Part shown: positions 45,228 to 63,341 of the stretch, piece by piece
How positions within the stretch are numbered: position 1 is the first letter of the stretch
Layout: each line of letters starts with the position of its first letter
Assembly (NCBI GenBank): GCA_022823625.1
Contig: JAJEHQ010000011.1
Span: 132,077-196,076, forward strand
DNA length: 64,000 nucleotides
Reading direction: 5' to 3'
From: Gammaproteobacteria bacterium
GTDB taxonomy: Bacteria; Pseudomonadota; Gammaproteobacteria; Arenicellales; JAJDZL01
Program-made: the position numbers and the translations under genes
The notes under the pieces: model-generated
Databases searched by the model: none
Told to the model about the DNA's origin: nothing
What the model saw: only the letters and a program-made list of their open reading frames with translations

Positions 45228-45257
45228 TGTCATTTATTTTTTAGGAGAAAGTTAAAT

Positions 45258-46082: not shown

Positions 46083-46100
46083 GGTTGTTTGATTTTTGTG

Positions 46101-46125
46101 TTTCCCCGGTAACTCGCCGGGGAAA
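46101..46125 (+). terminator. Intra-operon hairpin after the binding-protein gene (possible attenuator or partial terminator)
   Basis: TTTCCCCGG-taactcg-CCGGGGAAA, a perfect 9-bp GC-rich stem 19 nt after the stop. The downstream T-tract is weak (TACATAATTTCC). Confidence 0.45.
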
Positions 46126-46152
46126 TACATAATTTCCAATTGATTGTTTGAC

Positions 46153-47064: not shown

Positions 47065-47074
47065 GAGTGTTGAT

Positions 47075-47851
47075 ATGTCAGACCATACAGAAAATAAAAA
47101 TTCCGACCCGTCTCGCAAGGAACTTTTGAAGTTCGTTAACGTAGGCAAATGGTACGGTGATTTTTGTGCGCTATGGGACATCAACCTGACTGTTCATGCA
47201 GGTGAACGAGTGGTCGTTTGTGGCCCTTCCGGTTCTGGTAAATCAACGATGATACGGTGTGTCAACCAGCTTGAAACCTTTGAAGCTGGTGAAATTCTGA
47301 TTGACGGAGTTGTCGTCCAAACTGACCCGAAGTCTTTGCAGACCATTCGCCGTAAAGTCGGAATGGTGTTTCAGAACTTCAATCTATTTCCGCACATCAC
47401 AGTAATTCAGAACCTCATGTTGGGGCCAATCCGTAATTTAAAAGTATCAAAAAAAGAAGCGGAAGAAAGAGCGATGCGCTATTTGGAAAAGGTTCGCATT
47501 GCTGAGCAGGCTAAGAAATACCCCAGTCAACTGTCTGGTGGTCAGCAGCAGCGCGTTGCGATTGCACGGTCGTTATGTATGCACCCGGAGGTGATGCTGT
47601 TCGATGAACCGACATCTGCCCTTGACCCTGAAATGATTTCTGGCGTATTGGACATTATGGTGGAGTTGGCGGAAGGCGGAATGACGATGATGGTGGTCAC
47701 GCACGAGATGGGATTTGCCAAGCAGGTTGCAGATACGATGGTCTTCATGGACCATGGTGAAATTGTTGAAGTAGCGCCTCCAAATGAATTTTTCACCAAC
47801 CCCAAGAGCGAGCGAACCGAGCTTTTTCTCAGCCAGATATTGCAGCACTGA
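47075..47851 (+). CDS. Polar amino acid ABC transporter ATP-binding protein (HisP/GlnQ-like)
   Basis: [37 protein letters not shown] at 47063-47067 precedes the ATG at 47075. Confidence 0.9.
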
Positions 47852-47856
47852 CTGCT

Positions 47857-49119
47857 GTGCGCTCAGATCAACGTTATTCAATATTCACTCTGATTGGTGG
47901 CGCAGTTCGCGCTCACAGGCATTGGAAACCAGCTTGGCGAAATCCGCAGCCTAAGACGCACTACGATGTAGTCATCATCGGTGGCGGTGGGCATGGTCTC
48001 GCAACCGCCTATTATCTGGCGAAAAACCACGGTATCCACAATGTCGCTGTGGTCGAAAGAAACTGGATTGGTGGCGGTAACAGTGGTCGTAATACTGCAG
48101 TTGTTCGATCCAATTACCTTCGTGATATCAGCATTCAATTCTTTGACAAGTCGCTGCAGCTCTATGAAGGACTGAGTCGGGAACTCAACTACAACATCAT
48201 GCTCAGCCAGCGTAGTGAAGTCGATGTGCTGCTGACTACCGTGAGTATGCGCAACATGAGAAGACGCGCACTCAACATGAATCGATTGGGTATCGAGTTT
48301 CAGATGCTGACGCCCGATCAGGTGAGGGAGAGAATTCCGATTCTGGCTCCTATGGAAAACTGCCGCTTGCCCATTCTAGGTGGTTCAATTCAGGAACGTG
48401 CCGGTATTGCCAGGCATGATGCAATTGTATGGGGCTATGCAAGAGGTGCTGACTCTTACGGTGTCGACATTATTCAGAATGCCGAAGTTACGGCCATCCG
48501 CCGTGGCAATGATGGCGCAGTCGCTGAAATTGAGACAAGTCGAGGGCGAATAAAGGCCAACAAAATAGCGATTGCAACTGGTAATGAGAACGCTGCAGTG
48601 GCGAGTCTGGTCGATTTGAGACTCCCGCTTCGCTGCTATAACCTACAGGCATTCGTATCTGAACCGATCAAACCGGTTCTTGATGTTGTCGTCAATTGCC
48701 CTGATTTAGGGGTATATCTCAGCCATTCCGATAAAGGAGAGTTGGTGATTGGTGGAGCGACGGATGCGCAGCAGATTTCATTTCGAAAGGGTGGTAAGTT
48801 TCCAATGCTGGAAGACACCATTTCGGGATTACTTGAACTTTTTCCTTCTTTCCGACGGCTCAAGTTGATGCGGCAATGGGGCGGCGCCCTGGAATTTGCT
48901 CAGGATGGCAGTCCGATAGTTTCCTTAACTGATGTTAAAGGATTCTACGTCAGTGCCGGTTGGTGGGGTGGATTCAAGGCCATTCCTGCTGGTGGTATGA
49001 CATTTGCGCACTTAATCGCCCGCGATGAGCCACACCAGCTGGCGGCGGGATACGGGATGGAAAGATTCTCCACATTGAATTATCTGCTTGAAGGTGGGAC
49101 GACGGTTCCGACCGATTGA
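47857..49119 (+). CDS. soxB: Heterotetrameric sarcosine oxidase family, beta subunit
   Basis: RYSIF...HRHWKPAWRNPQPKTHYDVVIIGGGGHGLATAYYLAK is the canonical SoxB N-terminus. The GTG start lies 5 nt after the ATPase stop. Confidence 0.85.
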   Translation: MRSDQRYSIFTLIGGAVRAHRHWKPAWRNPQPKTHYDVVIIGGGGHGLATAYYLAKNHGIHNVAVVERNWIGGGNSGRNTAVVRSNYLRDISIQFFDKSLQLYEGLSRELNYNIMLSQRSEVDVLLTTVSMRNMRRRALNMNRLGIEFQMLTPDQVRERIPILAPMENCRLPILGGSIQERAGIARHDAIVWGYARGADSYGVDIIQNAEVTAIRRGNDGAVAEIETSRGRIKANKIAIATGNENAAVASLVDLRLPLRCYNLQAFVSEPIKPVLDVVVNCPDLGVYLSHSDKGELVIGGATDAQQISFRKGGKFPMLEDTISGLLELFPSFRRLKLMRQWGGALEFAQDGSPIVSLTDVKGFYVSAGWWGGFKAIPAGGMTFAHLIARDEPHQLAAGYGMERFSTLNYLLEGGTTVPTD

Positions 49120-49210
49120 GTGTTTTATGCTGTACTAACCGAATAGTGTTCACAAAATTGGATTCTGTCCGATCAAAATTATCCGATTCGCTGATAAGGA
49201 TAGCCATTCG

Positions 49211-49465
49211 ATGTTATTAATCCATTGTCCATGGTGTGGAGTACGCGCTGAGTCGGAGTTCAGGTGTACGGGTCAAGTGAAGCCGCCGCGCAGTGAGTTT
49301 GTACATAAAAGCGATGAAGCCTGGCTTGAATACCTCTATCAGGCGGACAATCGCCGCGGAATTTTAGAAGAATACTGGTGTCATGAAAAAGGATGTGGCC
49401 AGTGGTTTAAGCTTCGGCGCGATACCACAACGCATGAGATCATGGATGGGGATACGGACTCATGA
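49211..49465 (+). CDS. soxD: Sarcosine oxidase family, delta subunit
   Basis: MLLIHCPWCGVRAESEF... has Zn-ribbon-type Cys/His. 84 aa. Its stop overlaps the soxA start. Confidence 0.85.
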   Translation: MLLIHCPWCGVRAESEFRCTGQVKPPRSEFVHKSDEAWLEYLYQADNRRGILEEYWCHEKGCGQWFKLRRDTTTHEIMDGDTDS

Positions 49466-52431
49466 GTCGAGCAAATTCAAAAAGGCTCCATTTTGGCGGT
49501 TACATTGATCGAACGCAAAGCCTGAAATTTAAGTTCAATGGCAGAGACTATGTCGGATTTCAGGGCGACACACTCGCTTCGGCACTCATGGCAAACGGAG
49601 TTAACGTCCTTTCGAGAAGCTTCAAATATCACCGCCCGCGTGGAGTCCAAAATCGCGGGTATGCCGACGTTACCTCACTTGTACAGATTGCAGGGAAAAA
49701 TGAATCTCCCAATGTTCTTGCCAGCGTTCAGCCACTTTACGAAGGCCTCGAAGCGTTCAGTGTGAACTGCTGGCCGAGCGTCAGTTTCGACATTGGTTCG
49801 ATTTTCGGAGCGTTTTCCCCGATTCTTCCAGCGGGTTTTTACTACAAGACATTCATGTGGCCCAACTGGCATTTATTTGAGCCGCTGATCCGGCGTGCTG
49901 CCGGTTTCGGGAAAGCACCCAGTCAGGCGCCTGCTGGTCAATTCCTGAACCGGTTTGATTATTGCGATATTTTGGTGATCGGTGCTGGTCCTGCCGGACT
50001 TCTGGCGGCTTTGACCGCGGCGAAGTCCGGGGCACGGACTGTGATTATTGATGAAATGACTCAGCCCGGTGGCAGTTTGCTATACAGCAAGACAGAACTT
50101 GAGGGGCAGCTTGCAATCGATTGGATAGCCCGTACAGTTGATGAACTGAAAAGCATGGATCACGCAACCTGCCTTTGGAATTCAACGGCCTGGGGCTACC
50201 AGGAAGGGAACATGGTGTGCGTTTCGGAACGTGACCCGAAACCCGCAGAGTTGATTGGTCGAAATTGGAAAATTTGGGCGAAACAGGTCATACTGGCAAC
50301 GGGCGCAATCGAACGGCCAATCGTCTTTGAAAACAATGACGTGCCTGGTGTGATGCTTTGTTCTGCAGTGATGGAAGCGATTCAGACGTACGGAGTGGTT
50401 CCTGGGAAAAAGGCGGTACTGTTCACCAACAATAGCAGTGCTTACGACATTCTGCCGTATCTGCAAGTAGCAGGTATTGAACTGGCCGCCATTGTGGATA
50501 CGCGCAGTGATGTTGAATTGGATACTGTTATTGGGACGGATGACTCAAATGTCGAGGTTCTACAGGGAGCTTCTATCCAACTGGTGATACGCGCAGGTAG
50601 ACGAGTCAGGGGTGTTGTAGTCCATGCTCAGGACAGTTCCGGCAAAGAGAAAGTGGGCAAAATCGAATGTGACTTGGTCTGCGTTTCGGGTGGCTGGAAT
50701 CCCAGTGTTCATCTCTTCTCTCAATCGCGCGGGACTCTTCGCTATGATGACAATATTGCATCATTTGTTCCAGATCAGGCGATTCAGGCGACACTCTGCG
50801 CGGGTGCCATAACTGGCGAAATGTCGTTAGCAGGCAGTCTGAAATCTGCGGTGCAAATCGGGTCGAAGGCATTGTCAAGAATTGGGATTGAGGCGGCACC
50901 GATTTCGATTCCAGAGGTGACAAACGGCGATCACACTAACTATCAAGTTGATGCGTTCTGGAGTTCAACTGCTGGTCATAAGCGCGTCAAGGCGTTTGTC
51001 GATTTTGCAGGAGATGTGACCGTTTTCGATTTGAAACTCGCCATTCAGGAGGGATTCGATGAGATTGAGCACCTGAAACGCTACACAACCACAGGCATGG
51101 GACTCGATCAGGGAAAAACAGCCAATGTCAATGCGATCGGGATTATTGCCTTTCATCTGGATTGCCATCCATCAGAAGTTGGCACGACAACTTTTCGACC
51201 GCCCTACACACCAGTTGAATTTGGCTCGATTGCTGGAAGTCAAGCGGGTGATGTAGTATTGCCTTACCGCCATACACCGATGACGCATTGGCACAAAGAG
51301 TACGGTGCGGTGATGTACGAAGCAGGAGCCAGGTGGCGGCGTCCTGGTTATTACCTGAAGGAAGGTGAGTCCATGAATGAAGCGATCAATCGCGAGTGTT
51401 ATGCGGTGAGAAATCATGTTGGAATTTACGATGGCTCACCACTCGGCAAATTTATCATTCGGGGCAAGGATACTGAGAAACTACTCAATCTCATCTATAC
51501 AAACAGTTTTAACGGATTAAAACCGGGTCAGGGCAAATACGGGTTAATGCTCAATGAAGAGGGGCTGATTTTTGATGATGGTGTCACCTTTCGAATTGAT
51601 GATGATCAATACCTCTTGTCTTGTTCTACTGGCGGTGCACCAGCGGTAGAGCGTAAGGTTGATAAGCTGATTAATGTCGAGTGCCCTGAATTGAAAGTGA
51701 TCATCACTCCGGTAACCTCTCAGTGGGCGAACGCGACGGTCTGCGGACCTTTGGCAAGACAGATGCTTCAATCCACAGAATCAGACATCGATTGGTCACG
51801 AGAAGCCCTACCATTCATGCATGTCGTGGAAGGCATCATCGCCGGAATGCCAGTCAGGGTGTTTCGGGTCAGTTTCACTGGGGAGTTGAGTTTTGAGATC
51901 AACACACCTTCGAGGTACGGGCTCAAGCTTTGGAGGTATCTAATCGAAGTCGGGCAGAATTGGGATATCTGCCCAGTTGGGTCGGAAGCCAATCACGTCC
52001 TTCGAGTCGAAAAAGGATTTTTGTCTCTGGCTCATGAGGTTGACGGGACAGTCGATCCAATTGACTTGGGACACGGTTGGATCGTGAGTCGGAAAAAGAA
52101 AGACTTCATTGGCAAACGCTCAATGGAGATTCGTCGACAGAACCAGCCAGTTCGGCAGGAACTCGTTGGTTTACTGCCAAAAGACTCGAAGCAACTGATT
52201 TCGGAAGGAGCACCCATAGCACCAGCGAACAAACAGGAGTTGTCAGATGGGTTTGTTTCTGCTTGTGTATGGAGTGGGGTCTTGGAACGCACAATTGCGC
52301 TTGGAGTACTTACGGACGGGCGTTCCAGATTTGGCGAGACGGTACTTGCTTGGGAACAAGGTGAACCGCTGCCTCTAGAGGTCACACGCCCGATATTCTA
52401 TGATGCTGAGGGGATAAGGCTGAGGATGTGA
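49462..52431 (+). CDS. soxA: Sarcosine oxidase family, alpha subunit
   Basis: 989 aa. It has a dinucleotide-binding ILVIGAGPAGLLAALTAAKSG and a C-terminal GcvT-like folate-binding domain (HVGIYDGSPLGKF...). Confidence 0.85.
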   Translation: MSRANSKRLHFGGYIDRTQSLKFKFNGRDYVGFQGDTLASALMANGVNVLSRSFKYHRPRGVQNRGYADVTSLVQIAGKNESPNVLASVQPLYEGLEAFSVNCWPSVSFDIGSIFGAFSPILPAGFYYKTFMWPNWHLFEPLIRRAAGFGKAPSQAPAGQFLNRFDYCDILVIGAGPAGLLAALTAAKSGARTVIIDEMTQPGGSLLYSKTELEGQLAIDWIARTVDELKSMDHATCLWNSTAWGYQEGNMVCVSERDPKPAELIGRNWKIWAKQVILATGAIERPIVFENNDVPGVMLCSAVMEAIQTYGVVPGKKAVLFTNNSSAYDILPYLQVAGIELAAIVDTRSDVELDTVIGTDDSNVEVLQGASIQLVIRAGRRVRGVVVHAQDSSGKEKVGKIECDLVCVSGGWNPSVHLFSQSRGTLRYDDNIASFVPDQAIQATLCAGAITGEMSLAGSLKSAVQIGSKALSRIGIEAAPISIPEVTNGDHTNYQVDAFWSSTAGHKRVKAFVDFAGDVTVFDLKLAIQEGFDEIEHLKRYTTTGMGLDQGKTANVNAIGIIAFHLDCHPSEVGTTTFRPPYTPVEFGSIAGSQAGDVVLPYRHTPMTHWHKEYGAVMYEAGARWRRPGYYLKEGESMNEAINRECYAVRNHVGIYDGSPLGKFIIRGKDTEKLLNLIYTNSFNGLKPGQGKYGLMLNEEGLIFDDGVTFRIDDDQYLLSCSTGGAPAVERKVDKLINVECPELKVIITPVTSQWANATVCGPLARQMLQSTESDIDWSREALPFMHVVEGIIAGMPVRVFRVSFTGELSFEINTPSRYGLKLWRYLIEVGQNWDICPVGSEANHVLRVEKGFLSLAHEVDGTVDPIDLGHGWIVSRKKKDFIGKRSMEIRRQNQPVRQELVGLLPKDSKQLISEGAPIAPANKQELSDGFVSACVWSGVLERTIALGVLTDGRSRFGETVLAWEQGEPLPLEVTRPIFYDAEGIRLRM

Positions 52432-52952
52432 ACATGGGATACTCGGTGGAAATCACATCCATGGATCAAGAAGCCATGTTTGATGTTCAGTGCATCAGGC
52501 CGATTCTGGATGACTTTGTTGCGCGTTTCAGCCTGGAGGTATCCTCGGACACCGATGAATTTTTATCATCTGTAGAGTTTAATATTCTTAGGCTTGGACC
52601 AAGACGGGTGCTGATCCAGTCTTCACTTAGAGATGAGTATCAGATTGAATACAGGGCCGCGAGTTGCAATAGTGACCCGAAGAATCTGAGTGTCGTCAAT
52701 GTTTCAGATCTATATCTTGGAATTCAACTGGCCGGCACTGACGCGCTGGAAGTCCTGGCGCATGCAGTTCCACTCAATCTTCACGAGTTTGCAATCGGCG
52801 ATTCAACTTTAACTGCAGTATTTTCAATTGCAGGTATCGTAACGCGCACTGCTGAAGAATCGTACTCACTTTATATTGATCGAAGTTATTTTGACTATGT
52901 ATGGTACCGTCTCCATGTCTGTGGACTCAAGAATCTGAGCGACCACGGCTAA
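52428..52952 (+). CDS. soxG: Sarcosine oxidase family, gamma subunit
   Basis: 174 aa. The call rests on position (a 4-nt overlap with soxA) and size. The sequence itself is poorly diagnostic. Confidence 0.65.
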   Translation: MNMGYSVEITSMDQEAMFDVQCIRPILDDFVARFSLEVSSDTDEFLSSVEFNILRLGPRRVLIQSSLRDEYQIEYRAASCNSDPKNLSVVNVSDLYLGIQLAGTDALEVLAHAVPLNLHEFAIGDSTLTAVFSIAGIVTRTAEESYSLYIDRSYFDYVWYRLHVCGLKNLSDHG

Positions 52953-53006
52953 ATTCACTCCGTATTCGTATACAAATAACAGCAATCCTTCGATCGAGAT
53001 TTAAAA

Positions 53007-53687
53007 ATGGTTTTGACGATACTGTTTGATTTTGATGGGGTGCTGGTGGACTCTATCGAAATTTTTTCCGAAGCTGTCAATGTTGCCGGTCGAAAATTAA
53101 AGCAGCCTGTTGCGTTTGTACCGGACGACCTGCGCAATATCAAACGCATGTCTATTGCAGAGATTGTTGAAGCCGCAAATGTTGACCCAAGTCTTTCACA
53201 AGAGTTCGTAGTTGAAATTGATCGGGCACTTTTTGATCGATACGAGCAGATCCAGCTTTTCCCAGAAATTGCCAGGGTCGTTCAACAACTGAGAGAAGTC
53301 GCAAAACTTGGCATTGTTTCAGCAACCTCTGTAGCAGTACTTCAAAGAGTTTTGGAGCATCAAGGAATCAAGCAGCACTTCGATGAAATCGTCGGTGGAG
53401 ATGTCCCGGGTACCAAAGCGCAAAAAATTCAACGCATCATTCTAAAGAACGGGTCGGATCAATCGAAGTCCTGTATGATTGGCGATACCGTCAGTGACAT
53501 GGAACAGGGCAAGGCGGCAGGAGTCGTAACGATTGCGGTCAGTTGGGGTTGGCATGCGATCGAGTGGATACGAATAGTTCAGCCAGATTACGAAGCCCAT
53601 CAACCGCAGGATTTAATTGACATTACCAGGCAGCATTTGCTGCCAAATCATTTGACGCCAAACTCATTGAAACATATGGTGAATTGA
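53007..53687 (+). CDS. HAD-superfamily hydrolase (phosphoglycolate phosphatase/beta-PGM-like subfamily IA)
   Basis: Motif I LFDFDGVLVDS, motif II VSATS, motif IV GDTVSD. Confidence 0.8.
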   Translation: MVLTILFDFDGVLVDSIEIFSEAVNVAGRKLKQPVAFVPDDLRNIKRMSIAEIVEAANVDPSLSQEFVVEIDRALFDRYEQIQLFPEIARVVQQLREVAKLGIVSATSVAVLQRVLEHQGIKQHFDEIVGGDVPGTKAQKIQRIILKNGSDQSKSCMIGDTVSDMEQGKAAGVVTIAVSWGWHAIEWIRIVQPDYEAHQPQDLIDITRQHLLPNHLTPNSLKHMVN

Positions 53688-53693
53688 AAATCA

Positions 53694-54827
53694 ATGAAAG
53701 ACAACAAAACCTTACTCGCTCAGGCCAATCACTACATCAATCCGTCAAGCGGTGGCATCGTTCCACCAATTGACCCTTCAGTTACATTCGCTCGCGATGA
53801 TGATCTGGAATTAATTGGAAACTATGTTTATGGACGCTACTCCAATCCTACCTATGAGCAGCTTGAAGGGATCATCTGTGAATTGGAGGGCGGGGAGAAA
53901 GCGTTGTTCTTTGCATCAGGTCTTGCAGCCATCGCTGCAGTGTTTGAGACCGTTAACATGGGTGAGCATATCGTAGCGCCGAAAGTGATGTATCACGGCA
54001 CGGTCGACTGGTTAAAGCGGATATCCGAAAAACGCAATATTGAGTTGACTTTGTTCGATCCCTCTGACCCCACCAATTTAACTCGCTCACTGATTCCTGG
54101 AAAAACAGCGATCGTCTGGATTGAGTCACCCATTAACCCGTCGTGGGATGTGATTGATATTGAAAAAGCAGCCGATGATACTCATGCAGCCGGTGCAATT
54201 TTGGGTGTCGATGGTACTGCAGCGTCTCCCATCTCGACACAGGCATTGAATCTAGGCGCTGATATCGTATTTCATTCTGCAACTAAATATCTGAATGGGC
54301 ACAGCGACCTTAATGCTGGGGTACTCGTGACTGGAGCGGTAAACAAGTGCTGGGAAGAAATCGTCGACGTTCGTCGACTGACAGGCGGCATATTGGGTTC
54401 ATTTGAGGCTTGGCTACTGTTGCGTGGCATGCGGACTCTATCGATCCGATGGCAACGTAGTTGCGAAAGTGCCATGCAAATTGCCGAGTTTCTGGAGGAA
54501 CATCCTGCAGTTGAAAGGGTGCTGTATCCAGGGTTACCGAGCCATCCCTCACACGAAATAGCCAAGCGTCAGATGACCAACGGATTTGGTGGGATGATGT
54601 CGCTGCAGATGAAAAGGGGTCAGGAAGCAGCGCGTGAATTCGTAACGCGGGCCAAGGTTTTTGTCAGAGCGACATCACTGGGTGGAGTGGAAAGTCTGAT
54701 TGAGCATCGAAGGACTGTTGAAGGACCACACAGTGAAGTACCAGTTAACCTGATTCGACTTTCAGTTGGAATAGAAAGCGTAGAGGATCTTATTGAAGAC
54801 TTGCGTCAGGCACTAGAAGGGCTGTGA
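53694..54827 (+). CDS. Cys/Met-metabolism PLP-dependent enzyme (cystathionine gamma-synthase/gamma-lyase/beta-lyase family)
   Basis: HSATKYLNGHSD (PLP-lysine signature) and SLGGVESL. 377 aa. Confidence 0.85.
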   Translation: MKDNKTLLAQANHYINPSSGGIVPPIDPSVTFARDDDLELIGNYVYGRYSNPTYEQLEGIICELEGGEKALFFASGLAAIAAVFETVNMGEHIVAPKVMYHGTVDWLKRISEKRNIELTLFDPSDPTNLTRSLIPGKTAIVWIESPINPSWDVIDIEKAADDTHAAGAILGVDGTAASPISTQALNLGADIVFHSATKYLNGHSDLNAGVLVTGAVNKCWEEIVDVRRLTGGILGSFEAWLLLRGMRTLSIRWQRSCESAMQIAEFLEEHPAVERVLYPGLPSHPSHEIAKRQMTNGFGGMMSLQMKRGQEAAREFVTRAKVFVRATSLGGVESLIEHRRTVEGPHSEVPVNLIRLSVGIESVEDLIEDLRQALEGL

Positions 54828-54946
54828 GCAGTTTCGCAGATTAGGCATGCTTTTGTCCTCGCTGTACGTAACCACCAGGGAATGAGTTACGGTCTGGCCT
54901 GAGCCAGTGATTTATTGACTTTTCCATACAGATAGAACGAAACAAA

Positions 54947-56731
54947 GTGCCTCATCACAGATCTGTCAACGAAGATCGTACAGACGGCTTCAGTGTGAAA
55001 GATGTCGTTGCTGCATACGATGCCGAAGCATCTAGGTTGACATCAGAATACGAGCGCCTTCCTTTTGAAAAAATCCACTCTGCTGTATTGGATCTTGTGC
55101 CGGATACACCTAGCTTTATTCTCGATATTGGTGCTGGGACCGGACGGGACGCAGCTTGGTTCGCGGACAAAGAGCACACAGTTGTCGCGGTTGAGCCATC
55201 TAGGGAGATGAGAAAAGCCGGGCAGGAACGGCATCGTTCTTCAAACATCCAGTGGATGAATGACGCGATGCCAAAGCTGGAGCAGGTGTTTAGCTCTAAA
55301 CTCACTTTTGATCTGGTGTGGTTGAGTGGGGTGTGGATGCATGTGCCGAAAACTCAGCGCGATCGGGCATTTCGCAAGATCGTTTCGGTATTGAGGCCTG
55401 GCGGTAGTGTGATGGTGAGTATCCGTGTCGGTCCCCAGCCGGAAGGGCGTCCGATGGACCCGATAACTGTCGCAGAGATAGAAACCTTGGCACAGCGACG
55501 TGGACTTCAAATCGTGCGCGTTGACCGTACTGAGGACGCACTTCAAAGACCTGAAATAAGTTGGGACGTCGTCTGGCTGCGTTTTCCGGACGATGGCACA
55601 GGTGCTCTTCCCTTACTGCGGCACATCGTTTTCAACGACAGTAAGTCCTCAACGTACAAGCTTGCGCTTCTTCGTACGCTGATTCGTGCTGCAGACAGTG
55701 CCGGTGGTTTTGCGCGGCCAAGTCAAGATGACCAACACGTCGAATTGCCACTTGGACTGATATCACTATTCTGGGTTCGGGGATTCCAACCACTCTTGGC
55801 GAATGATCTCTCTCAACATCCTGCAGGCAACAGCAGGTTGTCATTTGTGAAGGAGGGTTTTCAAGGACTTGCTTCTCGTTCACCCTATGATCTACGTGTT
55901 GGCCAGAATTTTTCCGGACAAGATGCCGTAAACCTAATTCGTGCTTTGCGTGATGCTGCAAACTGCATTCGCAGAATGCCAGCGCATTTCATCACATATC
56001 CTGGCAGTTCCAGTTCAGATCAAAATCACGTTTTTCCTTGCGAGTACAGATCGGTTCGAGTCAGAGACTCTGTACGAATTGACGAAGATTTTCTATGGGC
56101 TTTTGGTACATTCAGCGTACCTGTGCATGTGTGGCAAGCCATGAGTCGCTATGCTCCATGGATTGAACCTGCCGTAGTCAATGAATGGATCGAAGTCATG
56201 CGGGGTTACAAACAATCAAAGGCGGTAGTCACTCAAGATCAATATCTTTCATCTTTAAAGTGGCTTGATCCAGGACATGACACTACATTAGTTCGTAAGC
56301 TTGGAGAAAACCTTCGTGCAGACGGCCAACGAATCTACTGCGTTTGGACCGGAAATTTCATTCGGCAGAAATTTGATGTTGACCACTGCATGCCCTATGC
56401 GGCATGGTCCTGTAATGATCTGTGGAATCTGTTGCCAAGCCTGCCCCGAGTTAATCGAAGTAAAGGAAATTGCCTTCCAGCACCTGAGGCTCTTGAGCAA
56501 GCCAAGCCCCGAATTCTGGAGTGGTGGTCAAGTGCCTATTTGAGTAAACCTGACCTTGCACTACGCTTCGAAGATGAGGCTCGAAGTGCGTTACCTGCAA
56601 TCAAACCTGTTGAGGGGACGGTATCAACAGAGAATGTAGAGCATTTTTTCCAAGGTGTAATGTTTCAGCAAATGGTGTTGAAACGAGATCAGCAGCTAAC
56701 TGAGTGGCACACGCCAAATTTATTCCCTTGA
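54947..56731 (+). CDS. Fusion protein: N-terminal class I SAM-dependent methyltransferase, an uncharacterised central region and a C-terminal HNH (His-Me finger) nuclease motif
   Basis: SAM motif I is ILDIGAGTGRDAAWFA, followed by VVAVEPS and LRPGG. The central region contains STYKLALLRTLIRA. The C-terminus YCVWTGNFIRQKFDVDHCMPYAAWSCNDLWNLLPSLPRVNRSKGN fits the D-H...N...N-x-x-K HNH pattern. The start is GTG at 54947, or alternatively GTG at 54995. Confidence 0.7.
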   Translation: MPHHRSVNEDRTDGFSVKDVVAAYDAEASRLTSEYERLPFEKIHSAVLDLVPDTPSFILDIGAGTGRDAAWFADKEHTVVAVEPSREMRKAGQERHRSSNIQWMNDAMPKLEQVFSSKLTFDLVWLSGVWMHVPKTQRDRAFRKIVSVLRPGGSVMVSIRVGPQPEGRPMDPITVAEIETLAQRRGLQIVRVDRTEDALQRPEISWDVVWLRFPDDGTGALPLLRHIVFNDSKSSTYKLALLRTLIRAADSAGGFARPSQDDQHVELPLGLISLFWVRGFQPLLANDLSQHPAGNSRLSFVKEGFQGLASRSPYDLRVGQNFSGQDAVNLIRALRDAANCIRRMPAHFITYPGSSSSDQNHVFPCEYRSVRVRDSVRIDEDFLWAFGTFSVPVHVWQAMSRYAPWIEPAVVNEWIEVMRGYKQSKAVVTQDQYLSSLKWLDPGHDTTLVRKLGENLRADGQRIYCVWTGNFIRQKFDVDHCMPYAAWSCNDLWNLLPSLPRVNRSKGNCLPAPEALEQAKPRILEWWSSAYLSKPDLALRFEDEARSALPAIKPVEGTVSTENVEHFFQGVMFQQMVLKRDQQLTEWHTPNLFP

Positions 56732-56758
56732 TAGGTTACTAGTCCTAACAGAACAGCA

Positions 56759-56782
56759 GTCGACGCAAGTCTCGTCGATTTG
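56759..56782 (+). terminator. Possible terminator after the methyltransferase-HNH gene
   Basis: (G)TCGACG-caagtct-CGTCGA(T)TTTG: a 6-7 bp stem and a short T run, 28 nt after the stop. Confidence 0.35.
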
Positions 56783-56865
56783 CACCAACGGACAAGAATG
56801 GACTCGCCAGTCACAGAAATTCGGTTCGGCTTTTCAGTCACCACACACCCTAAATTTGACTGATA

Positions 56866-58179
56866 ATGCGTGCTATGAGTTGCCAGCATTATTCCCAGCA
56901 TGAACACGGTGCGAAATCGTTCACCGTCGTAATGCCAAAAATCACTTTCGGACGGGGATGTCTAGCTGAGATTGGAGTCCGCGCCAAGGCTCGAGATTTC
57001 ACACGTGTAGCACTCTTTACTGACCCATTCCTTCGAAACGGACCTTACTTTGAAACGGCTGTAAACACGTTGCAGGCGAGCGGGATTGATGTTGCAGTGT
57101 TTTCTGAAATTCGCATTGAACCCGACGACAATACTATCATCGCCGCCGCAGAATTTTTACGTGACGGACAATTTGACGGTGTGATTTCTGTTGGTGGAGG
57201 CTCTACGATGGACACTGCTAAAGCGGGCATGGTCTATGCATTATATCCAGCAGAGTTCACTGACTATTTTGGCCCACCGGTCGGAGCTGGCAAGCCAGTA
57301 CCCGGTTCGCTATTGCCTCACATCGCCTGTCCGACAACTTCCGGTACCGGTTCAGAGTGCACCTCGGTTGCGGTAATCAGGATCAATGCACTGAATACCA
57401 AGTTTGTAGTTGGTTCTCCGCACATGATGCCATCTGAGGCGCTGGTAGATCCTGCCTGTACGGACACACTAGCAGCCAATGTTGTCGCATCGACGGGTTA
57501 CGATTTGCTGTGTCATGCGCTCGAATGCTATACCGCGAGAGCCTATGCCGCGTGGGATTACATTCCGGAACCCAACAGCCGTTCGCTGCTGCAAGGATCA
57601 AATCCGTGGAGTGACATGTCGGCGCGCGCAGCATTGGAAATCATCAGAAATTATCTTGTGCGCGGTGTTAACGATCAAACCGACTGCGAAGCTCGGGATC
57701 AGTTGATGTGGGGTGCTACCTTGGCAGGCATGGCGTTTGGCAACAGTGGGACGCACCTGCCGCATGCCATGTCCTACGGAATTACCCACCTCATGGACAA
57801 CATCACTACCAATGACTATCAGGTCGCTTCACCTTTCGTCCCACACGGAATTAGCGTGATGGTCTGTGCTCCTGCGATATTTCGTTATATTGCTGAAGGC
57901 GCTCCGCAGCGGCACCTATCTGCTGCAGGCTTTCTGGGTGCCAACGCTAAAGATGCAATACCGAGCGATGCCGGTGAAATAGTCGCTGAAGAACTGATCC
58001 GGTTAATTCGCCGTACGAATGGGCCTAATGGAATCAGTGGGGTTGGATTCAACGTGGAAGACGTAAAGGATCTGGCAGCTTCAGCGGTTCGTCAGTCCCG
58101 GGCAATACAAAACGCACCGCGTGTTGTCGAGCAGCAGGAAATCGAGAATATCTTCACGAGTGCGGTGAGTTATTGGTAG
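56866..58179 (+). CDS. Iron-containing alcohol dehydrogenase family (hydroxyacid-oxoacid transhydrogenase-like)
   Basis: GGGSTMDTAK, the PTTSGTGSE motif and the His-rich metal site HALECY...HLPHAMSY. Confidence 0.85.
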   Translation: MRAMSCQHYSQHEHGAKSFTVVMPKITFGRGCLAEIGVRAKARDFTRVALFTDPFLRNGPYFETAVNTLQASGIDVAVFSEIRIEPDDNTIIAAAEFLRDGQFDGVISVGGGSTMDTAKAGMVYALYPAEFTDYFGPPVGAGKPVPGSLLPHIACPTTSGTGSECTSVAVIRINALNTKFVVGSPHMMPSEALVDPACTDTLAANVVASTGYDLLCHALECYTARAYAAWDYIPEPNSRSLLQGSNPWSDMSARAALEIIRNYLVRGVNDQTDCEARDQLMWGATLAGMAFGNSGTHLPHAMSYGITHLMDNITTNDYQVASPFVPHGISVMVCAPAIFRYIAEGAPQRHLSAAGFLGANAKDAIPSDAGEIVAEELIRLIRRTNGPNGISGVGFNVEDVKDLAASAVRQSRAIQNAPRVVEQQEIENIFTSAVSYW

Positions 58180-58355
58180 TGTTCAACTACTAAAATCTTG
58201 AACTGCAGTCGGGAGACAATCAGCAGTTTGACAGGTGGAGAGCGGTGAAAAATCGCACTGGTAAGACAGCCCCGCAACCTTTCAGTTGACTTTCAAATGA
58301 CTCTGAAAATTAGTGTTTGAAGGAGAACTGGAACAACCTGTTTCATCTGCGCGCA

Positions 58356-59501
58356 TTAAGAGAAGCCGACAAGTGAGTCTAAACGAAAACGGTCTGGCGA
58401 TAGACTCTCAAATGGAAATCCGTGTGATTTATAAGCGTACGGTAGCTCTGCACTGGAAATCAGAGAGGCTGCATAGCGGCCAATTGCAGGTGAGGTGAAT
58501 ACACCGTATCCACCCTGACCAACCAGCCAGAAAAACCCGGGTACTTCCGGCTCCCATCCAATCACCGGATCTCCGTCCGAGGAAAATGTTCGAAGACCGG
58601 CCCAACTGTGATCAATACGTTTGATTTTGAGTGTCGAAACGTCTTCAAGCCTCGCCACTGTGACCGCCATGTCGACTTCATCCGGCTGCGCATCACAGGG
58701 TACGCTCGGAGTTTGGTCAATCGGTGAGATCATCAGTTGACCGACTCCAAATTGCTGAAAATAAAGGTAGTCGGGCTCGACGATGACAAATGGCAAATCA
58801 TCAAAATTGATGCCATCGAATTGATCGCTGCTAACCACAACAATGGTCCTGCGCTTTGGAATCAACCCAATCGGACTGATACCGGCAAGCTTTGCAATTT
58901 CATCGCCCCATGCACCAGCGGCATTAACGACAATTGCAGACTCATAGCGCTGACCACCAGCCTCCACTTCCCAGATGTCGGATGGCGCTAGGGTTATCTT
59001 GGTTACCTCAGCATCAGTTACCACTTTTCCACCGCGGTTTTTCAATGCTTGTACGTACACGCTATGCAACGCGTGAACATCTATGGAGGCAACCTGCGTA
59101 TCTAGCACAGCACCAACATATCTGCCGGGTTTGAGGAATGGTACACGATTAAGAAATTCCGATTCGTCTAGCCACACGCTCTTCGGGGGTCGGTCAACTG
59201 TCATTGAGTTTGCTTTGTCCACAAGAGAAATAGTTTTGCGCTCACTCAGGATCTCAACTTCACTGTCAAATTCAGGCGACTCAAGAAAGTTCCGGCTCAG
59301 GCCTCCAAACGCGCGCATCGAGTCCGGACCATAGTACGGTGTAAACAGTGCAGCGCTGCGCCCGGTTGTGTGGTAAGCGAGGGAACTTTCTCGTTCCAGC
59401 AGTGTGACACTCAGCCCATCATCAGCCAAAAAAGCAGCGACAGAGGCACCGGCAATGCCACCTCCGATGACGATGGCATCAAATTTTTTTACTGCACCCA
59501 T
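58356..59501 (-). CDS. FAD-dependent oxidoreductase (DAO / glycine-D-amino-acid oxidase family)
   Basis: N-terminal FDAIVIGGGIAGASVAAFLA dinucleotide fold. 381 aa. It starts directly after the upstream gene's stop. Confidence 0.8.
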   Translation of the reverse strand: MGAVKKFDAIVIGGGIAGASVAAFLADDGLSVTLLERESSLAYHTTGRSAALFTPYYGPDSMRAFGGLSRNFLESPEFDSEVEILSERKTISLVDKANSMTVDRPPKSVWLDESEFLNRVPFLKPGRYVGAVLDTQVASIDVHALHSVYVQALKNRGGKVVTDAEVTKITLAPSDIWEVEAGGQRYESAIVVNAAGAWGDEIAKLAGISPIGLIPKRRTIVVVSSDQFDGINFDDLPFVIVEPDYLYFQQFGVGQLMISPIDQTPSVPCDAQPDEVDMAVTVARLEDVSTLKIKRIDHSWAGLRTFSSDGDPVIGWEPEVPGFFWLVGQGGYGVFTSPAIGRYAASLISSAELPYAYKSHGFPFESLSPDRFRLDSLVGFS

Positions 59502-61544
59502 TTACAGGTGCTGGCAAAGGCGCAGTGAATCGTAAATTGCTGCATGAATATTTCGGCTGGCAACGGCATCACCAACTCTGAACAACTGATAAGTGCCATC
59601 CGGATTTGGTGCATGCTTCTGCGGTTGTTCAGCGACCAGCGCATTGATGTCGATTGTTCCTTGATTTTTTGAGCTTGGCTTAAGGTCGAAATAGAGTTCA
59701 TCATTTGGCAAAGTGCCATGTTCGACAACAATCTGAGGAGCAGAAATCGTAGTGGTGCTACGATCGTACTCATTGTAGAACTCACCTGTTAACGACCCGT
59801 TCCTGCGGTGAATGCGAATGAGACGTTTATTTGGCAGCATATCAACGTTATGCTGGTAGAAGAGCTTTAGGTAGATTGGGTAGTTGGTTCCTCCGACCTC
59901 CTGAGCAACGCTGCGGTCAGGTGTTACGATTTTGACGGACGCACCTTTAAGTGCCATGTATTCTGCACAGGAAATGCCTTGGTGCTGTCCGTTGTCGTCA
60001 TAGATCAGAACTTCAGAATCAACGGTAGTGATGCCTGTCAGCACATCCCAGGTAGTTGTTGCATATTCACTGCCTGAGTCGAGGAATGACAAATTTGGAA
60101 GTCCGCCGGTAGCGATAATAACGACATCCGGATTTTCCTGGACCACATCACTCGCTTCGACAAATGAATTGAATCGCATTTCCACTGACAGTCGTTGCAA
60201 TTGGGCATAACGCCAGTCAACGATGCCAAGAATTTCCCGTCTTCGCTCTACTTTTGCTGCAATATTGATCTGTCCGCCAGGCTGATCCCCAGCTTCAAAC
60301 AGTATGACATCATGCCCTCGTTCTGCCAGAACTCTTGCAGCTTCAAGTCCTCCAGGCCCTGCACCGACAACCACCACTCGCTTTAAGTCTTTTGATGGAA
60401 TGGTGATATGAGGTGCAGTTTCTTCACGTCCAGTCGAAGGATTGTGGATGCACAGTGCTTCAGATCCGACATAAATACGATCAATACAATAACCGGCTCC
60501 GACGCAGGGCCTAATCTGATCCTCCTGTCCGTTTTCAATTTTCCTGACGATGTGCGGATCAGCCATATGTGCCCGGGTCATGCCGATCAAGTCAACACAA
60601 CCGCTGCCGACCGCATGCCTGGCTGTTGCAACATCAGCAATTCTGGCAGCGTGAAAAATGGGTAGTTTCAATTCTGAACGAACCGCTGCAGTGAATTCAA
60701 GGTGCGGTCCGGATGGAGTGCCCATGTTGGGTATGACGTGGGACAAGCCTTCGTCTGTATCCACGTGCCCTTTTATGACATTTATGAAGTCCAGTTGGCC
60801 GGTATCGGTGAGAATTTTTGCGATGGTCATTCCTTCGTCAAATTCAATCCCACCCGGCAGGTCTTCGTCAATTACCATGCGAAGTCCCACGATATAGTCT
60901 GATCCGACCTGGTTGCGAATTTCGCCAAGGACTTCACGGGTGAAGCGCAGCCGGTTTTCGAGGCTGCCACCATATTCATCGGTTCGTCGATTGGTAAGCG
61001 GTGACCAGAACCCGTCCAATAGGTGCCCGTAACCTTCGATTTCGACACCGTCCAGGCCACCTTCCATGCAGCGCCTTGCTGCTGCACCGTAAGCATTCGC
61101 GATTCGAATCATATCCTCGCGTTCCATCTCCTTCGGAAAGGCGCGATGGGCCGGTTCCCTTACACAGGATGCAGCTACGGTTGGCAACCAGTCTTCCACA
61201 TAGGGTGAAGTCCGTCGTCCGAGGTGAGTGATCTGACACATCAGTGCTGCACCGTGTCGATGGACCCGATTTGAAAGTTCCTTAAAATAGGGAACGATTT
61301 CGTCAGTGCCCGCAAACAGATTGCCAAACGCCGGCGGTGAGTCTCGGTCAACCAGAGTCGAGCCACCGAACATGGTCAGACCAATACCGCCTTTGGCTTT
61401 TTCCTCGTGATACAACTGATAGCGCAGTTTGGGTAGCATATCTTCTGAATATGCCGGTTCATGACTGGTGCTGATGATTCGATTCTTCAACTCAAGGTGT
61501 TTGAGCGTGAATGGCTGAAGCAGGGGGTCTTTGGAAGTGCGCAT
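59502..61544 (-). CDS. Old-yellow-enzyme-type flavin oxidoreductase fused to an FAD/NAD(P)-binding domain (N-methylproline demethylase StcD / 2,4-dienoyl-CoA reductase / amine dehydrogenase-like)
   Basis: 680 aa. The N-terminus is LKNRIISTSHEP, the Cys cluster region is RPCVGAGYCIDR...ALCIHN, and the second Rossmann motif is VVVVGAGPGGLEAARVLAERGHDV. Confidence 0.8.
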   Translation of the reverse strand: MRTSKDPLLQPFTLKHLELKNRIISTSHEPAYSEDMLPKLRYQLYHEEKAKGGIGLTMFGGSTLVDRDSPPAFGNLFAGTDEIVPYFKELSNRVHRHGAALMCQITHLGRRTSPYVEDWLPTVAASCVREPAHRAFPKEMEREDMIRIANAYGAAARRCMEGGLDGVEIEGYGHLLDGFWSPLTNRRTDEYGGSLENRLRFTREVLGEIRNQVGSDYIVGLRMVIDEDLPGGIEFDEGMTIAKILTDTGQLDFINVIKGHVDTDEGLSHVIPNMGTPSGPHLEFTAAVRSELKLPIFHAARIADVATARHAVGSGCVDLIGMTRAHMADPHIVRKIENGQEDQIRPCVGAGYCIDRIYVGSEALCIHNPSTGREETAPHITIPSKDLKRVVVVGAGPGGLEAARVLAERGHDVILFEAGDQPGGQINIAAKVERRREILGIVDWRYAQLQRLSVEMRFNSFVEASDVVQENPDVVIIATGGLPNLSFLDSGSEYATTTWDVLTGITTVDSEVLIYDDNGQHQGISCAEYMALKGASVKIVTPDRSVAQEVGGTNYPIYLKLFYQHNVDMLPNKRLIRIHRRNGSLTGEFYNEYDRSTTTISAPQIVVEHGTLPNDELYFDLKPSSKNQGTIDINALVAEQPQKHAPNPDGTYQLFRVGDAVASRNIHAAIYDSLRLCQHL

Positions 61545-61805
61545 ACGGTACGAAACCTAATTTTTGTTTTGAGGAACGATAAATTTCAATTTCAAAAAAG
61601 TTATATTTATGCCTTTCAATTCACTTGCTGAAAAACTAGCACACATTGAAACAATGGCACTGCCTTTGTCGCTCAATTCAGGTAGCAAGCGCGCTATTTT
61701 AGAAGAATTGGCTGACAGGTACCGAGTGAATCATTTGCATGCTTGATTTCCCGCCAATTGCCTCAAATTTCACAGCGAGATTTCAGCATTCCGCGAGAGT
61801 CTTTC

Positions 61806-63341
61806 ATGGCAGATAGTCGACGCAGAGAAAGACAGAGAAGGCAGCGGCCTTCCCAGGCCAGAATAGATCAGCTTCCGTTTGAGCAAGTTGAAAATCCTTT
61901 TTCTCCGATTGATATCTTATCGGAAGATCAACTCAATCGAATTCATCATGCATCATTGGATGTGCTCGAAGACATCGGCATCAATTTTCTACTCGATGAA
62001 GCACGAGAAATTCTGAAAACTGCCGGCGCTGACGTCGAGAAAAACTCAACCCGTGTTCGCTTTGACCGAAACCTGATCTTGGAATCCATAGCAAAGGCTC
62101 CGTCTGAGTTTACGATTAACGCAAGAAATCCGCAACGGAGTCTGAAGATTGGTGGACGCTGGCTTGCTTTTTCGACCGTAGCCGGTCCTCCCAATGCCAG
62201 CGACATTCAAGGCGGCCGGCGTTCGGGTAACTTCAAGGATTACAGTGACTTCATTAAGCTTGCACAGAGTGTGAATATCGCTCACGCGATATCGGGACAT
62301 CCGGTTGAACCGCTTGACCTTGATCCTAAAACACGACACCTCGATACTGCCAGGGTAAACCTGACGCTCACTGACAAGGTATGCAGGGTTTATTCGTTGG
62401 GACGCGACCGCGTCATGGACATTTTGGAGATCACCCGAATATGTCACAGCCTGAGTCGGGAGGAATTGGCGAAGCGACCTAGCCTGTATACCGTTGTCAA
62501 TGTTAATTCTCCTCTTCAGTATGACATTCCAATGCTATGGGGCATCATCGAACTCGCCAGAATGAATCAGGTGGTCGTAATCACTCCTTTCACACTCGCC
62601 GGTGCTATGGCGCCAATCACTTTGGCCGGTGCTGTTACTCAGCAGAATGCCGAAGCGCTGGCCGGGCTCGCATTTTCTCAAATCGTAAACCCAGGTGCAC
62701 CGGTGATGTATGGAGGCTTTACTTCCAATGTTGATATGAAGACTGGTTCTCCAGCATTTGGCACACCGGAATATGTCAAAGCCACCTTGATGGGTGGACA
62801 GTTTGCAAGGTTCTACAATCTTCCATACCGATCTTCCAACGTCAATGCCTCAAACGCACCTGATGTGCAAGCAACATACGAATCGCAGATGTCGATCTGG
62901 GGATCGGTTATGGCGCGGGCTAACTTGATTCATCACGCACTCGGCTGGCTGGAAGGTGGACTGTGTGCTTCATTCGAAAAGTTTGTGATGGATGCCGAAA
63001 TGTTGCAGGGCGTGGTGGAAACCCTCAAACCGGTCGTTGTTGACGAAGATACGCTTGGCATTGAAGCAATGCGAGAAGTCGGTCCTGGCGGACATTATTT
63101 CGCAGCACAGCAGACTATGGAGCGCTATGAAACTGAGTTTTATAAGCCGATACTGTCTGATTGGCGAAACTTTGAAACCTGGTTCGAGGACGGCGCAAAG
63201 GACGCGACATCCCGCGCCAATCGAATTTACCAGCAACTACTATCGGAATATGAGGCCCCTAAGGTTGATGAGGCGATTTTGCAGGAGCTTGATGAATATA
63301 TTGAAACCACCCGTGAGGAGCGTCGTAAGGCTCCTGTTTAG
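61806..63341 (+). CDS. Trimethylamine methyltransferase (MttB) superfamily protein, non-pyrrolysine type
   Basis: About 511 aa from MADSRRRERQRRQR (the Arg-rich N-terminus common in non-Pyl MttB homologs). The frame is uninterrupted with no internal TAG. Family assignment is by overall sequence character and is not motif-proven. Confidence 0.7.
   Translation: MADSRRRERQRRQRPSQARIDQLPFEQVENPFSPIDILSEDQLNRIHHASLDVLEDIGINFLLDEAREILKTAGADVEKNSTRVRFDRNLILESIAKAPSEFTINARNPQRSLKIGGRWLAFSTVAGPPNASDIQGGRRSGNFKDYSDFIKLAQSVNIAHAISGHPVEPLDLDPKTRHLDTARVNLTLTDKVCRVYSLGRDRVMDILEITRICHSLSREELAKRPSLYTVVNVNSPLQYDIPMLWGIIELARMNQVVVITPFTLAGAMAPITLAGAVTQQNAEALAGLAFSQIVNPGAPVMYGGFTSNVDMKTGSPAFGTPEYVKATLMGGQFARFYNLPYRSSNVNASNAPDVQATYESQMSIWGSVMARANLIHHALGWLEGGLCASFEKFVMDAEMLQGVVETLKPVVVDEDTLGIEAMREVGPGGHYFAAQQTMERYETEFYKPILSDWRNFETWFEDGAKDATSRANRIYQQLLSEYEAPKVDEAILQELDEYIETTREERRKAPV

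Follow-up and report, generated by a model that had tools for sequence, protein, structure and literature searches.

This study focused on the question of what a gene that joins a methyltransferase to a nuclease is doing inside a bacterial catabolic gene cluster. The gene lies in a stretch of 64,000 nucleotides (positions 132,077 to 196,076 of contig JAJEHQ010000011.1, assembly GCA_022823625.1), the whole of which is referred to here as the window; this DNA comes from a sponge metagenome, and its closest genomes are metagenome-assembled genomes (MAGs) of the Arenicellales. An earlier note had described an open reading frame (ORF) of 594 residues at 54947-56731 as a methyltransferase dependent on S-adenosylmethionine (SAM), followed by a central region and an HNH nuclease, and had proposed it as a single-gene defence or selfish module. 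The ORF was found as described, on the plus strand from a GTG start to a TGA stop, and its three-part reading was correct. The interpretation put forward here, in which we have about even confidence, is that it would be a candidate nuclease module, accessory, self-contained and acquired horizontally, that takes part in genetic conflict or defence under SAM-dependent control. DNA as the target, the role in defence and the part played by the methyltransferase are points that we infer, and the position of the gene is best explained by an ancient insertion into a variable spot of a conserved metabolic cluster, where selection has maintained it.

Two enzymatic centres in one polypeptide

The N-terminal part of the protein has both hallmarks of a class I methyltransferase, motif I (D/E-x-G-x-G-x-G; here LDIGAGTGRDA, residues 59-69) and the acidic residue that closes strand 2 (E83), and Pfam Methyltransf_25 matched residues 58-153 (E=1e-17). 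Among about 220 relatives, with identities that go down to about 35%, at least 96% retain the SAM-binding D, G, G and G and the acidic residue at the E83 position. At the position after strand 4 where a DPPY-type motif would stand, the protein has FDLVWLSGVWMH, and [SA]VWxH is found at this motif IV position across relatives. The motif scan found neither [DNS]PP[YFW] nor a PP dipeptide anywhere in the 594 residues, so the signature of N6-adenine and N4-cytosine methyltransferases is missing; it found no PC[QH] either, and the sole ENV stands at residue 562, outside the methyltransferase domain, which likewise leaves the protein without the signature of C5-cytosine enzymes. Pfam, fold and motif scan thus agree with the original assignment of residues 1-210 to a class I enzyme of the small-molecule type that has no (D/N/S)PP(Y/F) or PCQ motif.

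Its nearest known relatives act on small molecules, thiols or tRNA. A full-length AlphaFold 2 (AF2) model (pLDDT 83.9, pTM 0.77), of which the pTM suggests that the domains are held in a fixed arrangement, matched only methyltransferases when compared with the PDB by Foldseek, among them CmoM, SpnF, UbiG, TPMT, TehB and the bacillithiol S-methyltransferase NmbA; the probability was 1.0 for many class I methyltransferases, with target-normalised TM-scores of up to 0.79. The best fold match was CmoM, and the PHROG family that matched best is labelled a tRNA methyltransferase. Sequence matches to TPMT (24.0 bits against a Pfam cut-off of 26), TehB (12.3 against 20.4), UbiG and UbiE/MenG all lay below the family cut-offs, and a further match was to PDB entry 2avn. 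The stretches GRDAxWFA..G..V.AVEPS and FDL[IV]W resemble what we take to be the corresponding parts of TPMT and TehB. Those enzymes, like CpaM and CmoM, share the fold and the SAM motifs with the present protein and differ in standing alone, with no nuclease attached.

The nuclease at the other end of the chain is a His-Me finger, as had been read from the sequence. Pfam HNH_4 matched residues 472-511 with 24.6-25.5 bits, above its gathering score of 22, and this part aligned weakly with the HNH chains of Cas9 in the PDB (DVDH..P...N...NRxKGN). Loss of the catalytic residues among homologs had been named beforehand as an observation that would count against the proposal; instead, at least 98% of about 220 relatives retain the D-H general base, the Asn residues of metal-binding or structural role and the Lys (D in 221 of 222, H in 219 of 222, the two N in 219 of 220 and 216 of 218, K in 215 of 218). 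With the HNH and SAM-binding residues nearly invariant, both catalytic centres look competent. One divergent member of 631 residues from a low-GC organism (P0191) has DIDY in place of DxDH and may have lost the catalytic histidine, and three further family members are also without it.

Between the two enzymes lies a domain for which no relatives were found. It is basic, with a median pI of 9.6 and a net charge of +6 for the family, and its signature, PDDGTGALPLLRH..ND.KSSTYKLALLR, is the best-conserved stretch of the entire protein. Residues 213-462 gave no Pfam match even at E<=10; a profile of this region, made from ten sequences of 36-50% identity, matched nothing among PDB sequences or in Pfam; and the C-terminal 384 residues modelled alone (AF2; pLDDT 83.7, pTM 0.83) had no structural neighbour at E<0.1 in the PDB or BFVD by Foldseek. 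The statement that the central 250 or so residues carry no recognisable motif therefore held good in all three databases, while the accompanying impression of a winged-helix or helical DNA-recognition module received no support from the Foldseek comparison. The domain was also considered as the sulfur-binding domain (SBD) of ScoMcrA, and this was rejected (hhalign probability 0.1 for the C-terminal 382 residues against the SBD/HNH_2 family encoded next to some homologs; no Pfam match).

Mean pairwise identity of the central domain among 157 full-length members was 0.52, the same as that of the methyltransferase, which is unlike a hypervariable target-recognition domain. The feature that it recognises would therefore probably be constant across the family, whether a fixed site, a DNA structure or a modification, and a diversifying sequence specificity is unlikely. 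This bears directly on the analogy with type IIG enzymes drawn in the earlier note. Enzymes of types IIG and IIL have an N-terminal PD-(D/E)XK nuclease, a gamma-class N6-adenine methyltransferase and a hypervariable target-recognition domain. If the present protein were a classical single-chain restriction-modification enzyme of this sort, it would methylate a base in its recognition sequence and cut unmethylated copies. Like MmeI and BpuSI, it combines a SAM-binding methyltransferase fold, with intact SAM-binding residues, and an endonuclease in one chain, encoded by a stand-alone, horizontally moving gene. However, it has neither motif IV nor a PC motif and is not a gamma-class N6-adenine enzyme, its sequence and fold matches are solely to small-molecule methyltransferases, its nuclease is a C-terminal HNH domain instead of an N-terminal PD-(D/E)XK, which reverses the domain order, and the region that would have to recognise the target is as conserved as the catalytic domains. 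The analogy breaks down for all of the defining features that were compared, namely motif IV, the type and position of the nuclease and the variable target-recognition domain, and we regard this explanation as highly unlikely.

An old insertion in a conserved catabolic cluster

Upstream of the ORF lie genes for an amino-acid ABC transporter, SoxBDAG, a HAD hydrolase and a Cys/Met pyridoxal phosphate (PLP) enzyme; downstream are an iron-containing alcohol dehydrogenase (Fe-ADH) gene, then convergent genes for DAO- and OYE-type oxidoreductases, and then MttB. The two sides had been taken for unrelated metabolic units, but they belong to one conserved sarcosine/methylamine catabolic neighbourhood (44382-63341), the gene order of which is kept in relatives whose PLP enzyme is about 78-84% identical. 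Its components, the ABC transporter, SoxB/D/A/G, a non-Pyl methyltransferase of the MttB family and a DgcA-like OYE-type flavoprotein with its DAO partner, are those of a neighbourhood for the catabolism of methylated amines or osmolytes.

In five related genomes (protein identity 83-92%) the gene is at the same place and the site is occupied as in the window, and the GTG start coincides with the start in homologs at this level of identity. Among close relatives, the ORF product is 83-92% identical whereas its neighbours are 90-100% identical, so that it evolves faster, and dN/dS is 0.19-0.24 for the ORF against 0.03-0.15 for the flanking genes. Taken separately, the three parts gave values of 0.14-0.35, and the ORF is clearly under purifying selection in all of them. 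Its dS is the same as that of the flanking genes, which indicates that it has been co-inherited with them.

Two more distant relatives do not have the gene at this exact site, which settles the presence or absence that the earlier note had suggested looking for. In one (L097; PLP enzyme 78% identical), the DAO gene follows 20 bp after the PLP gene (L097 9135-9154), and both the methyltransferase-HNH gene and Fe-ADH are missing; in the other (L096; PLP enzyme 84% identical), SocA_Panacea and DUF5131 genes occupy the same spot (L096 9141-11066). With an empty site in one relative and other cargo in another, the segment from the PLP-enzyme gene to the convergent DAO-type gene is best described as lineage-specific cargo in a small variable spot (Table 1). 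The site was found via the PLP-enzyme neighbour; a search for empty sites in metagenome contigs via the Fe-ADH neighbour gave one divergent short contig. The Fe-ADH gene (56866-58179) is likewise absent from both relatives, and may have arrived together with the methyltransferase-HNH gene or separately from it.

No flanking repeats, att-like sites, tRNA genes or Rfam elements were found around the insertion, and composition gave no sign of foreign origin. The ORF had been thought GC-richer than its neighbours on the basis of two short stretches counted by hand; these counts were correct (0.59 vs 0.50) but unrepresentative of the ORF, and the anomaly disappeared once values were computed over the 48 window genes. 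GC is 0.494 (z=+0.7), GC3 is 0.442 (z=-0.9), and the codon-usage deviation ranks 37th of 48, among the least deviant, so that the compositional argument fails and foreignness of this kind is ruled out. With composition ameliorated, and without flanking repeats, tRNA genes or Rfam elements, the insertion into the conserved cluster is old, and the gene is now fixed in the lineage.

Table 1. Features of the methyltransferase-HNH gene and its insertion site, in window coordinates
Feature	Position	Strand	Basis or remark
Complete ORF, 594 residues: methyltransferase, unnamed domain, HNH nuclease	54947..56731	+	GTG start, TGA stop
Class I SAM-dependent methyltransferase domain, about residues 17-212	54995..55582	+	Pfam Methyltransf_25/11/12/23, Foldseek, motifs
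Unnamed basic central domain, residues 213-462, about 250 residues	55583..56332	+	Family signature, AF2 model
HNH (His-Me finger) nuclease, Cas9/HNH_4 type	56333..56491	+	D479-H480, N490/N494, N503, K506
Acidic, three-helix C-terminal tail	56492..56728	+	Invariant W526, W527, Q574, L578, Q582, W587
Terminator-like hairpin with T-rich tail, between upstream PLP-enzyme gene and ORF	54894..54917	+	Hairpin proper 54894-54907
Weak hairpin TCGACG-n7-CGTCGA, stem 6 bp, followed by TTT only, 3' of stop	56760..56781	+	Hairpin proper 56760-56778
Lineage-specific cargo: ORF and Fe-ADH gene, between PLP-enzyme and convergent DAO-type genes	54828..58355	.	Empty site in L097, other cargo in L096

The spacers of 119 and 134 bp previously given for the two sides of the ORF were both exact. 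Separate transcription would be consistent with the terminator-like hairpin upstream, which is a consensus match of a kind no commoner than in shuffled sequence. The possible hairpin that had been noted 3' of the stop exists, with a 6-bp stem, but only TTT follows it and the terminator scan did not call it. Parts of the ORF are contained in two sequencing runs whose library type is not known; in one of these, short contigs (depth 12-50) fell inside the ORF and, two genes upstream of it, on part of the gene for the HAD hydrolase, with none on the adjoining PLP-enzyme or Fe-ADH genes. As a sign of expression, the two runs are weak and suggestive only.

Given its position, the gene could be pictured as an ordinary small-molecule methyltransferase of the methylamine/sarcosine cluster that carries a relic HNH tail. 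It does lie within a one-carbon/methylamine catabolic neighbourhood, and its best NCBIfam matches were CpaM and sarcosine/dimethylglycine N-methyltransferase; these were far below the cut-offs, however (51 vs 180 and 33 vs 550 bits), the cluster also exists without the gene, homologs occur in unrelated contexts, and the HNH residues are nearly invariant and under purifying selection. This explanation is largely refuted and scarcely tenable.

Distribution and decay of the family

Among 185,579 species, each represented by one genome, 452 carriers were found (about 0.24%), a lower bound from a pattern-based scan. They are spread patchily over at least eight phyla, and include Arenicellales and other Gammaproteobacteria, Alphaproteobacteria (Acetobacteraceae, Rhodobacterales), Betaproteobacteria (Massilia), Binatia, Thermodesulfobacteriota, Melainabacteria, Acidobacteriota, Firmicutes (Syntrophomonas) and Salinivenus. 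Copies from different phyla (Gammaproteobacteria, Binatia, Thermodesulfobacteriota and Rhodobacterales; loci L013-L040) share 55-65% identity, a pattern that suggests cross-phylum exchange within one habitat. Many of these cross-phylum MAGs have record names typical of sponge-symbiont bins, as judged from the names. Full-length copies were also present on nine plasmids or chromids, two of Azospirillum, four of Roseomonas, and one each of Sphingobium, Sinorhizobium fredii NGR234 and Pseudoalteromonas, where RefSeq labels them 'class I SAM-dependent methyltransferase'. No copy was found among the 50,697 phage records of INPHARED or in IMG/VR, so the family is not phage-borne. Massilia sp. ZL223 carries two paralogs that are 89% identical and lie about 13 kb apart on one contig (L058 9932-11728; L075 9839-11740).

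Full-length relatives at 50-90% identity are present in the protein database under generic names only ('methyltransferase domain-containing protein'), and a search with the C-terminal 384 residues (E<=1e-3) gave at least 1,229 clusters at 50% identity. The full-length matches, of about 560-590 residues, have about 195 residues, the methyltransferase, ahead of the matched part, and most shorter matches are truncated copies; those whose sequences were read were either truncated or began at the domain junction on short contigs, the others being unread. Three apparent methyltransferase-less forms (370-430 residues) that were examined proved to be decayed full-length genes. The copy of Sphingomonas sp. 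PAMC 26621 has a 1-nt frameshift at the domain junction, and of the other two, one has a frameshift inside the methyltransferase and the other an in-frame stop. In these three cases a stand-alone central-HNH form is ruled out, and the three-domain architecture is thus essentially invariant, with pseudogenised copies occurring in some lineages. Two members, P0058 (819 residues; PF26468 is listed for it in the database) and P0055 (730 residues), have N-terminal extensions of about 190-250 residues that gave no Pfam match at E<=1e-3, and which may be mis-called starts or extra domains. A literature search found no paper describing the methyltransferase-central domain-HNH architecture.

This distribution also bears on whether the protein could have a role outside immunity, as an accessory enzyme of nucleic-acid processing or repair. 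Such an enzyme might, for example, make a cut and then methylate the ends of RNA or DNA, or sites of damage, much as RNA ends are methylated in bacteria by the Pnkp/Hen1 repair system. A methyltransferase whose closest counterparts modify tRNA, small molecules or thiols would fit such a role, as would a central domain conserved as if for a constant substrate and the stable inheritance in the window clade. Patchy spread over about 0.24% of species, empty sites, plasmid carriage and pseudogenisation would be unexpected, however, and the neighbourhood has no conserved ligase, kinase or phosphatase gene that could act as a partner; such a role is unlikely.

Neighbouring genes across the family

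The 89 loci compared fell into 55 synteny groups, and no neighbour family occurred in more than 5 of 51 independent contexts, the commonest being generic (TctC, SDR, LysR). A conserved partner gene is ruled out by this count, the top family being a generic TctC or SDR, and the absence of an obligate partner makes the gene a stand-alone module. At the level of the family, the stand-alone character proposed earlier is thus well founded, with about 55 contexts, no fixed partner, a patchy occurrence across phyla and copies on plasmids. Vertical inheritance of homologs with conserved metabolic neighbours had been named as an observation that would refute a defence or selfish module, and it is seen within the window clade but not across the family.

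Restriction, toxin-antitoxin or transposase genes lay within about 8 kb of the gene in 9 of 11 contexts annotated by domain or RefSeq. Contexts included AAA_15/DUF3226, HNH_2 and Pol-beta NTase genes in one; DDE and rve transposases in another; a Phd-PIN pair; SBD_ScoMcrA-HNH_2, AAA_16/NACHT and Uma2; HipA, NOV_C and Uma2; insertion sequence (IS) elements with BrnTA; an HNH_2 gene within the same operon; and, on a 40-kb Roseomonas plasmid, McrC, a DUF3578 (McrB-like) protein, VapBC and IS21. In a further context, HNH_2 is followed by a PLD-helicase-DUF3427 gene that ends 4 nt before the methyltransferase-HNH gene. Two same-strand arrays of this composition were seen (L004 3922-9770, L014 5883-11743), with HNH_2 (about 300 residues), PLD-helicase-DUF3427 (about 1,045 residues) and the methyltransferase-HNH gene after a final gap of 4 nt, and they look like a cluster of type IV-like nucleases. 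By hidden Markov model (HMM) search, the HNH_2 protein of about 300 residues was found near the gene in seven independent contexts, two of them these same-strand arrays, and its member in L006-L008 carries PF26340, the ScoMcrA sulfur-binding domain.

PADLOC, applied to 141 immediate neighbours from 36 contexts, gave DndC-like, SspD-like, DndH-like, type III restriction-modification, type IV enzyme, ZorA and AbiEi matches. In two alphaproteobacterial MAGs (L062, L071), the methyltransferase-HNH gene has a HerA/DndH-like ATPase gene on one side and a DndC/SspD-like PAPS-reductase gene on the other, and would there lie inside a phosphorothioation-like locus. The earlier note had asked whether homologs sit in defence islands or next to genes such as dnd or ssp; restriction, toxin-antitoxin or IS neighbours were frequent, and Dnd/Ssp-like matches occurred among the neighbours. 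The pattern is that expected of a defence or mobilome gene, though the counts lack a matched background.

Toxin-antitoxin neighbours raise the alternative of a selfish addiction module, in which post-segregational killing by a nuclease toxin is held off in cis by the methyltransferase, and which would persist because its loss is harmful. A single-gene cassette that recurs in many unrelated surroundings, some of them plasmids and some next to toxin-antitoxin pairs and IS elements, could be of this nature, and the fusion of nuclease and methyltransferase is unbroken except in pseudogenes. It is in those pseudogenes, however, that the difficulty arises: L091 and L092 have a broken methyltransferase and an intact nuclease ORF, a combination that a cell still producing the nuclease should not survive if it depended on the methyltransferase as antidote. 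Stable vertical upkeep under purifying selection at a chromosomal metabolic locus also speaks against addiction, which we consider unlikely.

Comparison with known systems

Several modification-dependent (type IV) restriction enzymes that join a reader domain to a nuclease, namely the SBD-HNH enzymes ScoMcrA and SprMcrA, the SRA-HNH enzyme TagI and the EVE-HNH enzyme VcaM4I, of which the ScoMcrA type depends on phosphorothioate, resemble the present protein in having a binding module before a C-terminal HNH domain, and ScoMcrA-type enzymes and McrBC repeatedly adjoin genes of the family. They differ in carrying no methyltransferase, the central domain described here showed no relation to the SBD (by the hhalign comparison above) or to any reader fold in the PDB, and the HNH domain is of the Cas9-like HNH_4 type whereas that of ScoMcrA-type enzymes is HNH_2. 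The best sequence match of the nuclease is to the HNH_4 domain of Cas9 and IscB (D-x-D-H...P...N...N-R-x-K-G-N), but the protein lacks RuvC and any parts for binding a guide RNA, neither CRISPR nor omega-RNA belongs to its context, and no Rfam family lies nearby.

PADLOC had been suggested as a means of assigning the gene to a defence system, and it gave no usable assignment. The sole match of the ORF was to mad2 (2e-17), over the methyltransferase fold, and the HMMs for MADS (the methylation-associated defence system) derive from HHpred alignments against the PDB and thus model folds. An ordinary ABC-transporter ATPase of the window (47030-47851) matched mad3 (3.6e-34) and mad8 (2e-10), which indicates that the MADS profiles of PADLOC v2 give fold-level false positives. 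A MADS operon needs the mandatory MAD6, MAD7 and MAD8, whereas the flanks here are metabolic and no mad operon is present; membership via mad2 was therefore ruled out as a generic fold match.

Proposed function and significance

Under the interpretation preferred here, that of a self-contained nuclease module under SAM-dependent control, the basic central domain would bind nucleic acid, DNA most likely, the Cas9-type HNH domain would cut what is bound, and the N-terminal methyltransferase would bind SAM and serve as the control or self-protection element in the same chain; alternatively, the methyltransferase domain may mainly be a SAM-dependent switch. The lack of a DNA-methyltransferase motif IV, together with the likeness to enzymes acting on small molecules, tRNA or thiols, indicates that any mark is probably non-canonical, and the methylated target would probably be other than the usual N6-adenine, N4-cytosine or C5-cytosine.

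Several observations weigh against this interpretation. Inheritance of the gene within the window clade is stable and vertical, and no defence gene was found in its flanks in the window. DNA modification has no precedent in this type of methyltransferase, comparison of the protein with Pfam, the PDB and BFVD revealed no reader or sensor domain, and the target may be RNA or protein, given the PHROG match to a tRNA methyltransferase and the fold match to CmoM. The neighbour counts stand without a matched background, and PADLOC single-HMM matches are permissive. The absence of the family from phage collections could be added to this list, yet it is neutral with regard to defence.

A more specific, and quite unlikely, form of the proposal is that a TPMT/TehB-like 'soft-nucleophile' methyltransferase acts on a non-canonical nucleic-acid atom, such as a phosphorothioate sulfur or a DNA or RNA end, and is coupled to HNH cutting via a new DNA-binding fold, which would make the protein a new class of single-chain immune enzyme. 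If this were true, the repeated co-location with phosphorothioate-related genes, both ScoMcrA-type SBD-HNH genes (seven contexts) and DndC-, SspD- and DndH-like genes, would be functional, not incidental.

If the role in defence is correct, the protein would be a compact, single-gene system of 594 residues with a chemistry absent from known restriction and abortive-infection enzymes. Its annotation as 'class I SAM-dependent methyltransferase' hides the family, so that defence-finding tools miss it. The family is large and uncharacterised, has a middle domain of about 250 residues for which no structural relatives were found, and is exchanged across phyla, notably among sponge symbionts. The locus itself is a clear example of a small variable spot in a conserved metabolic cluster that takes up different accessory cargo by lineage.

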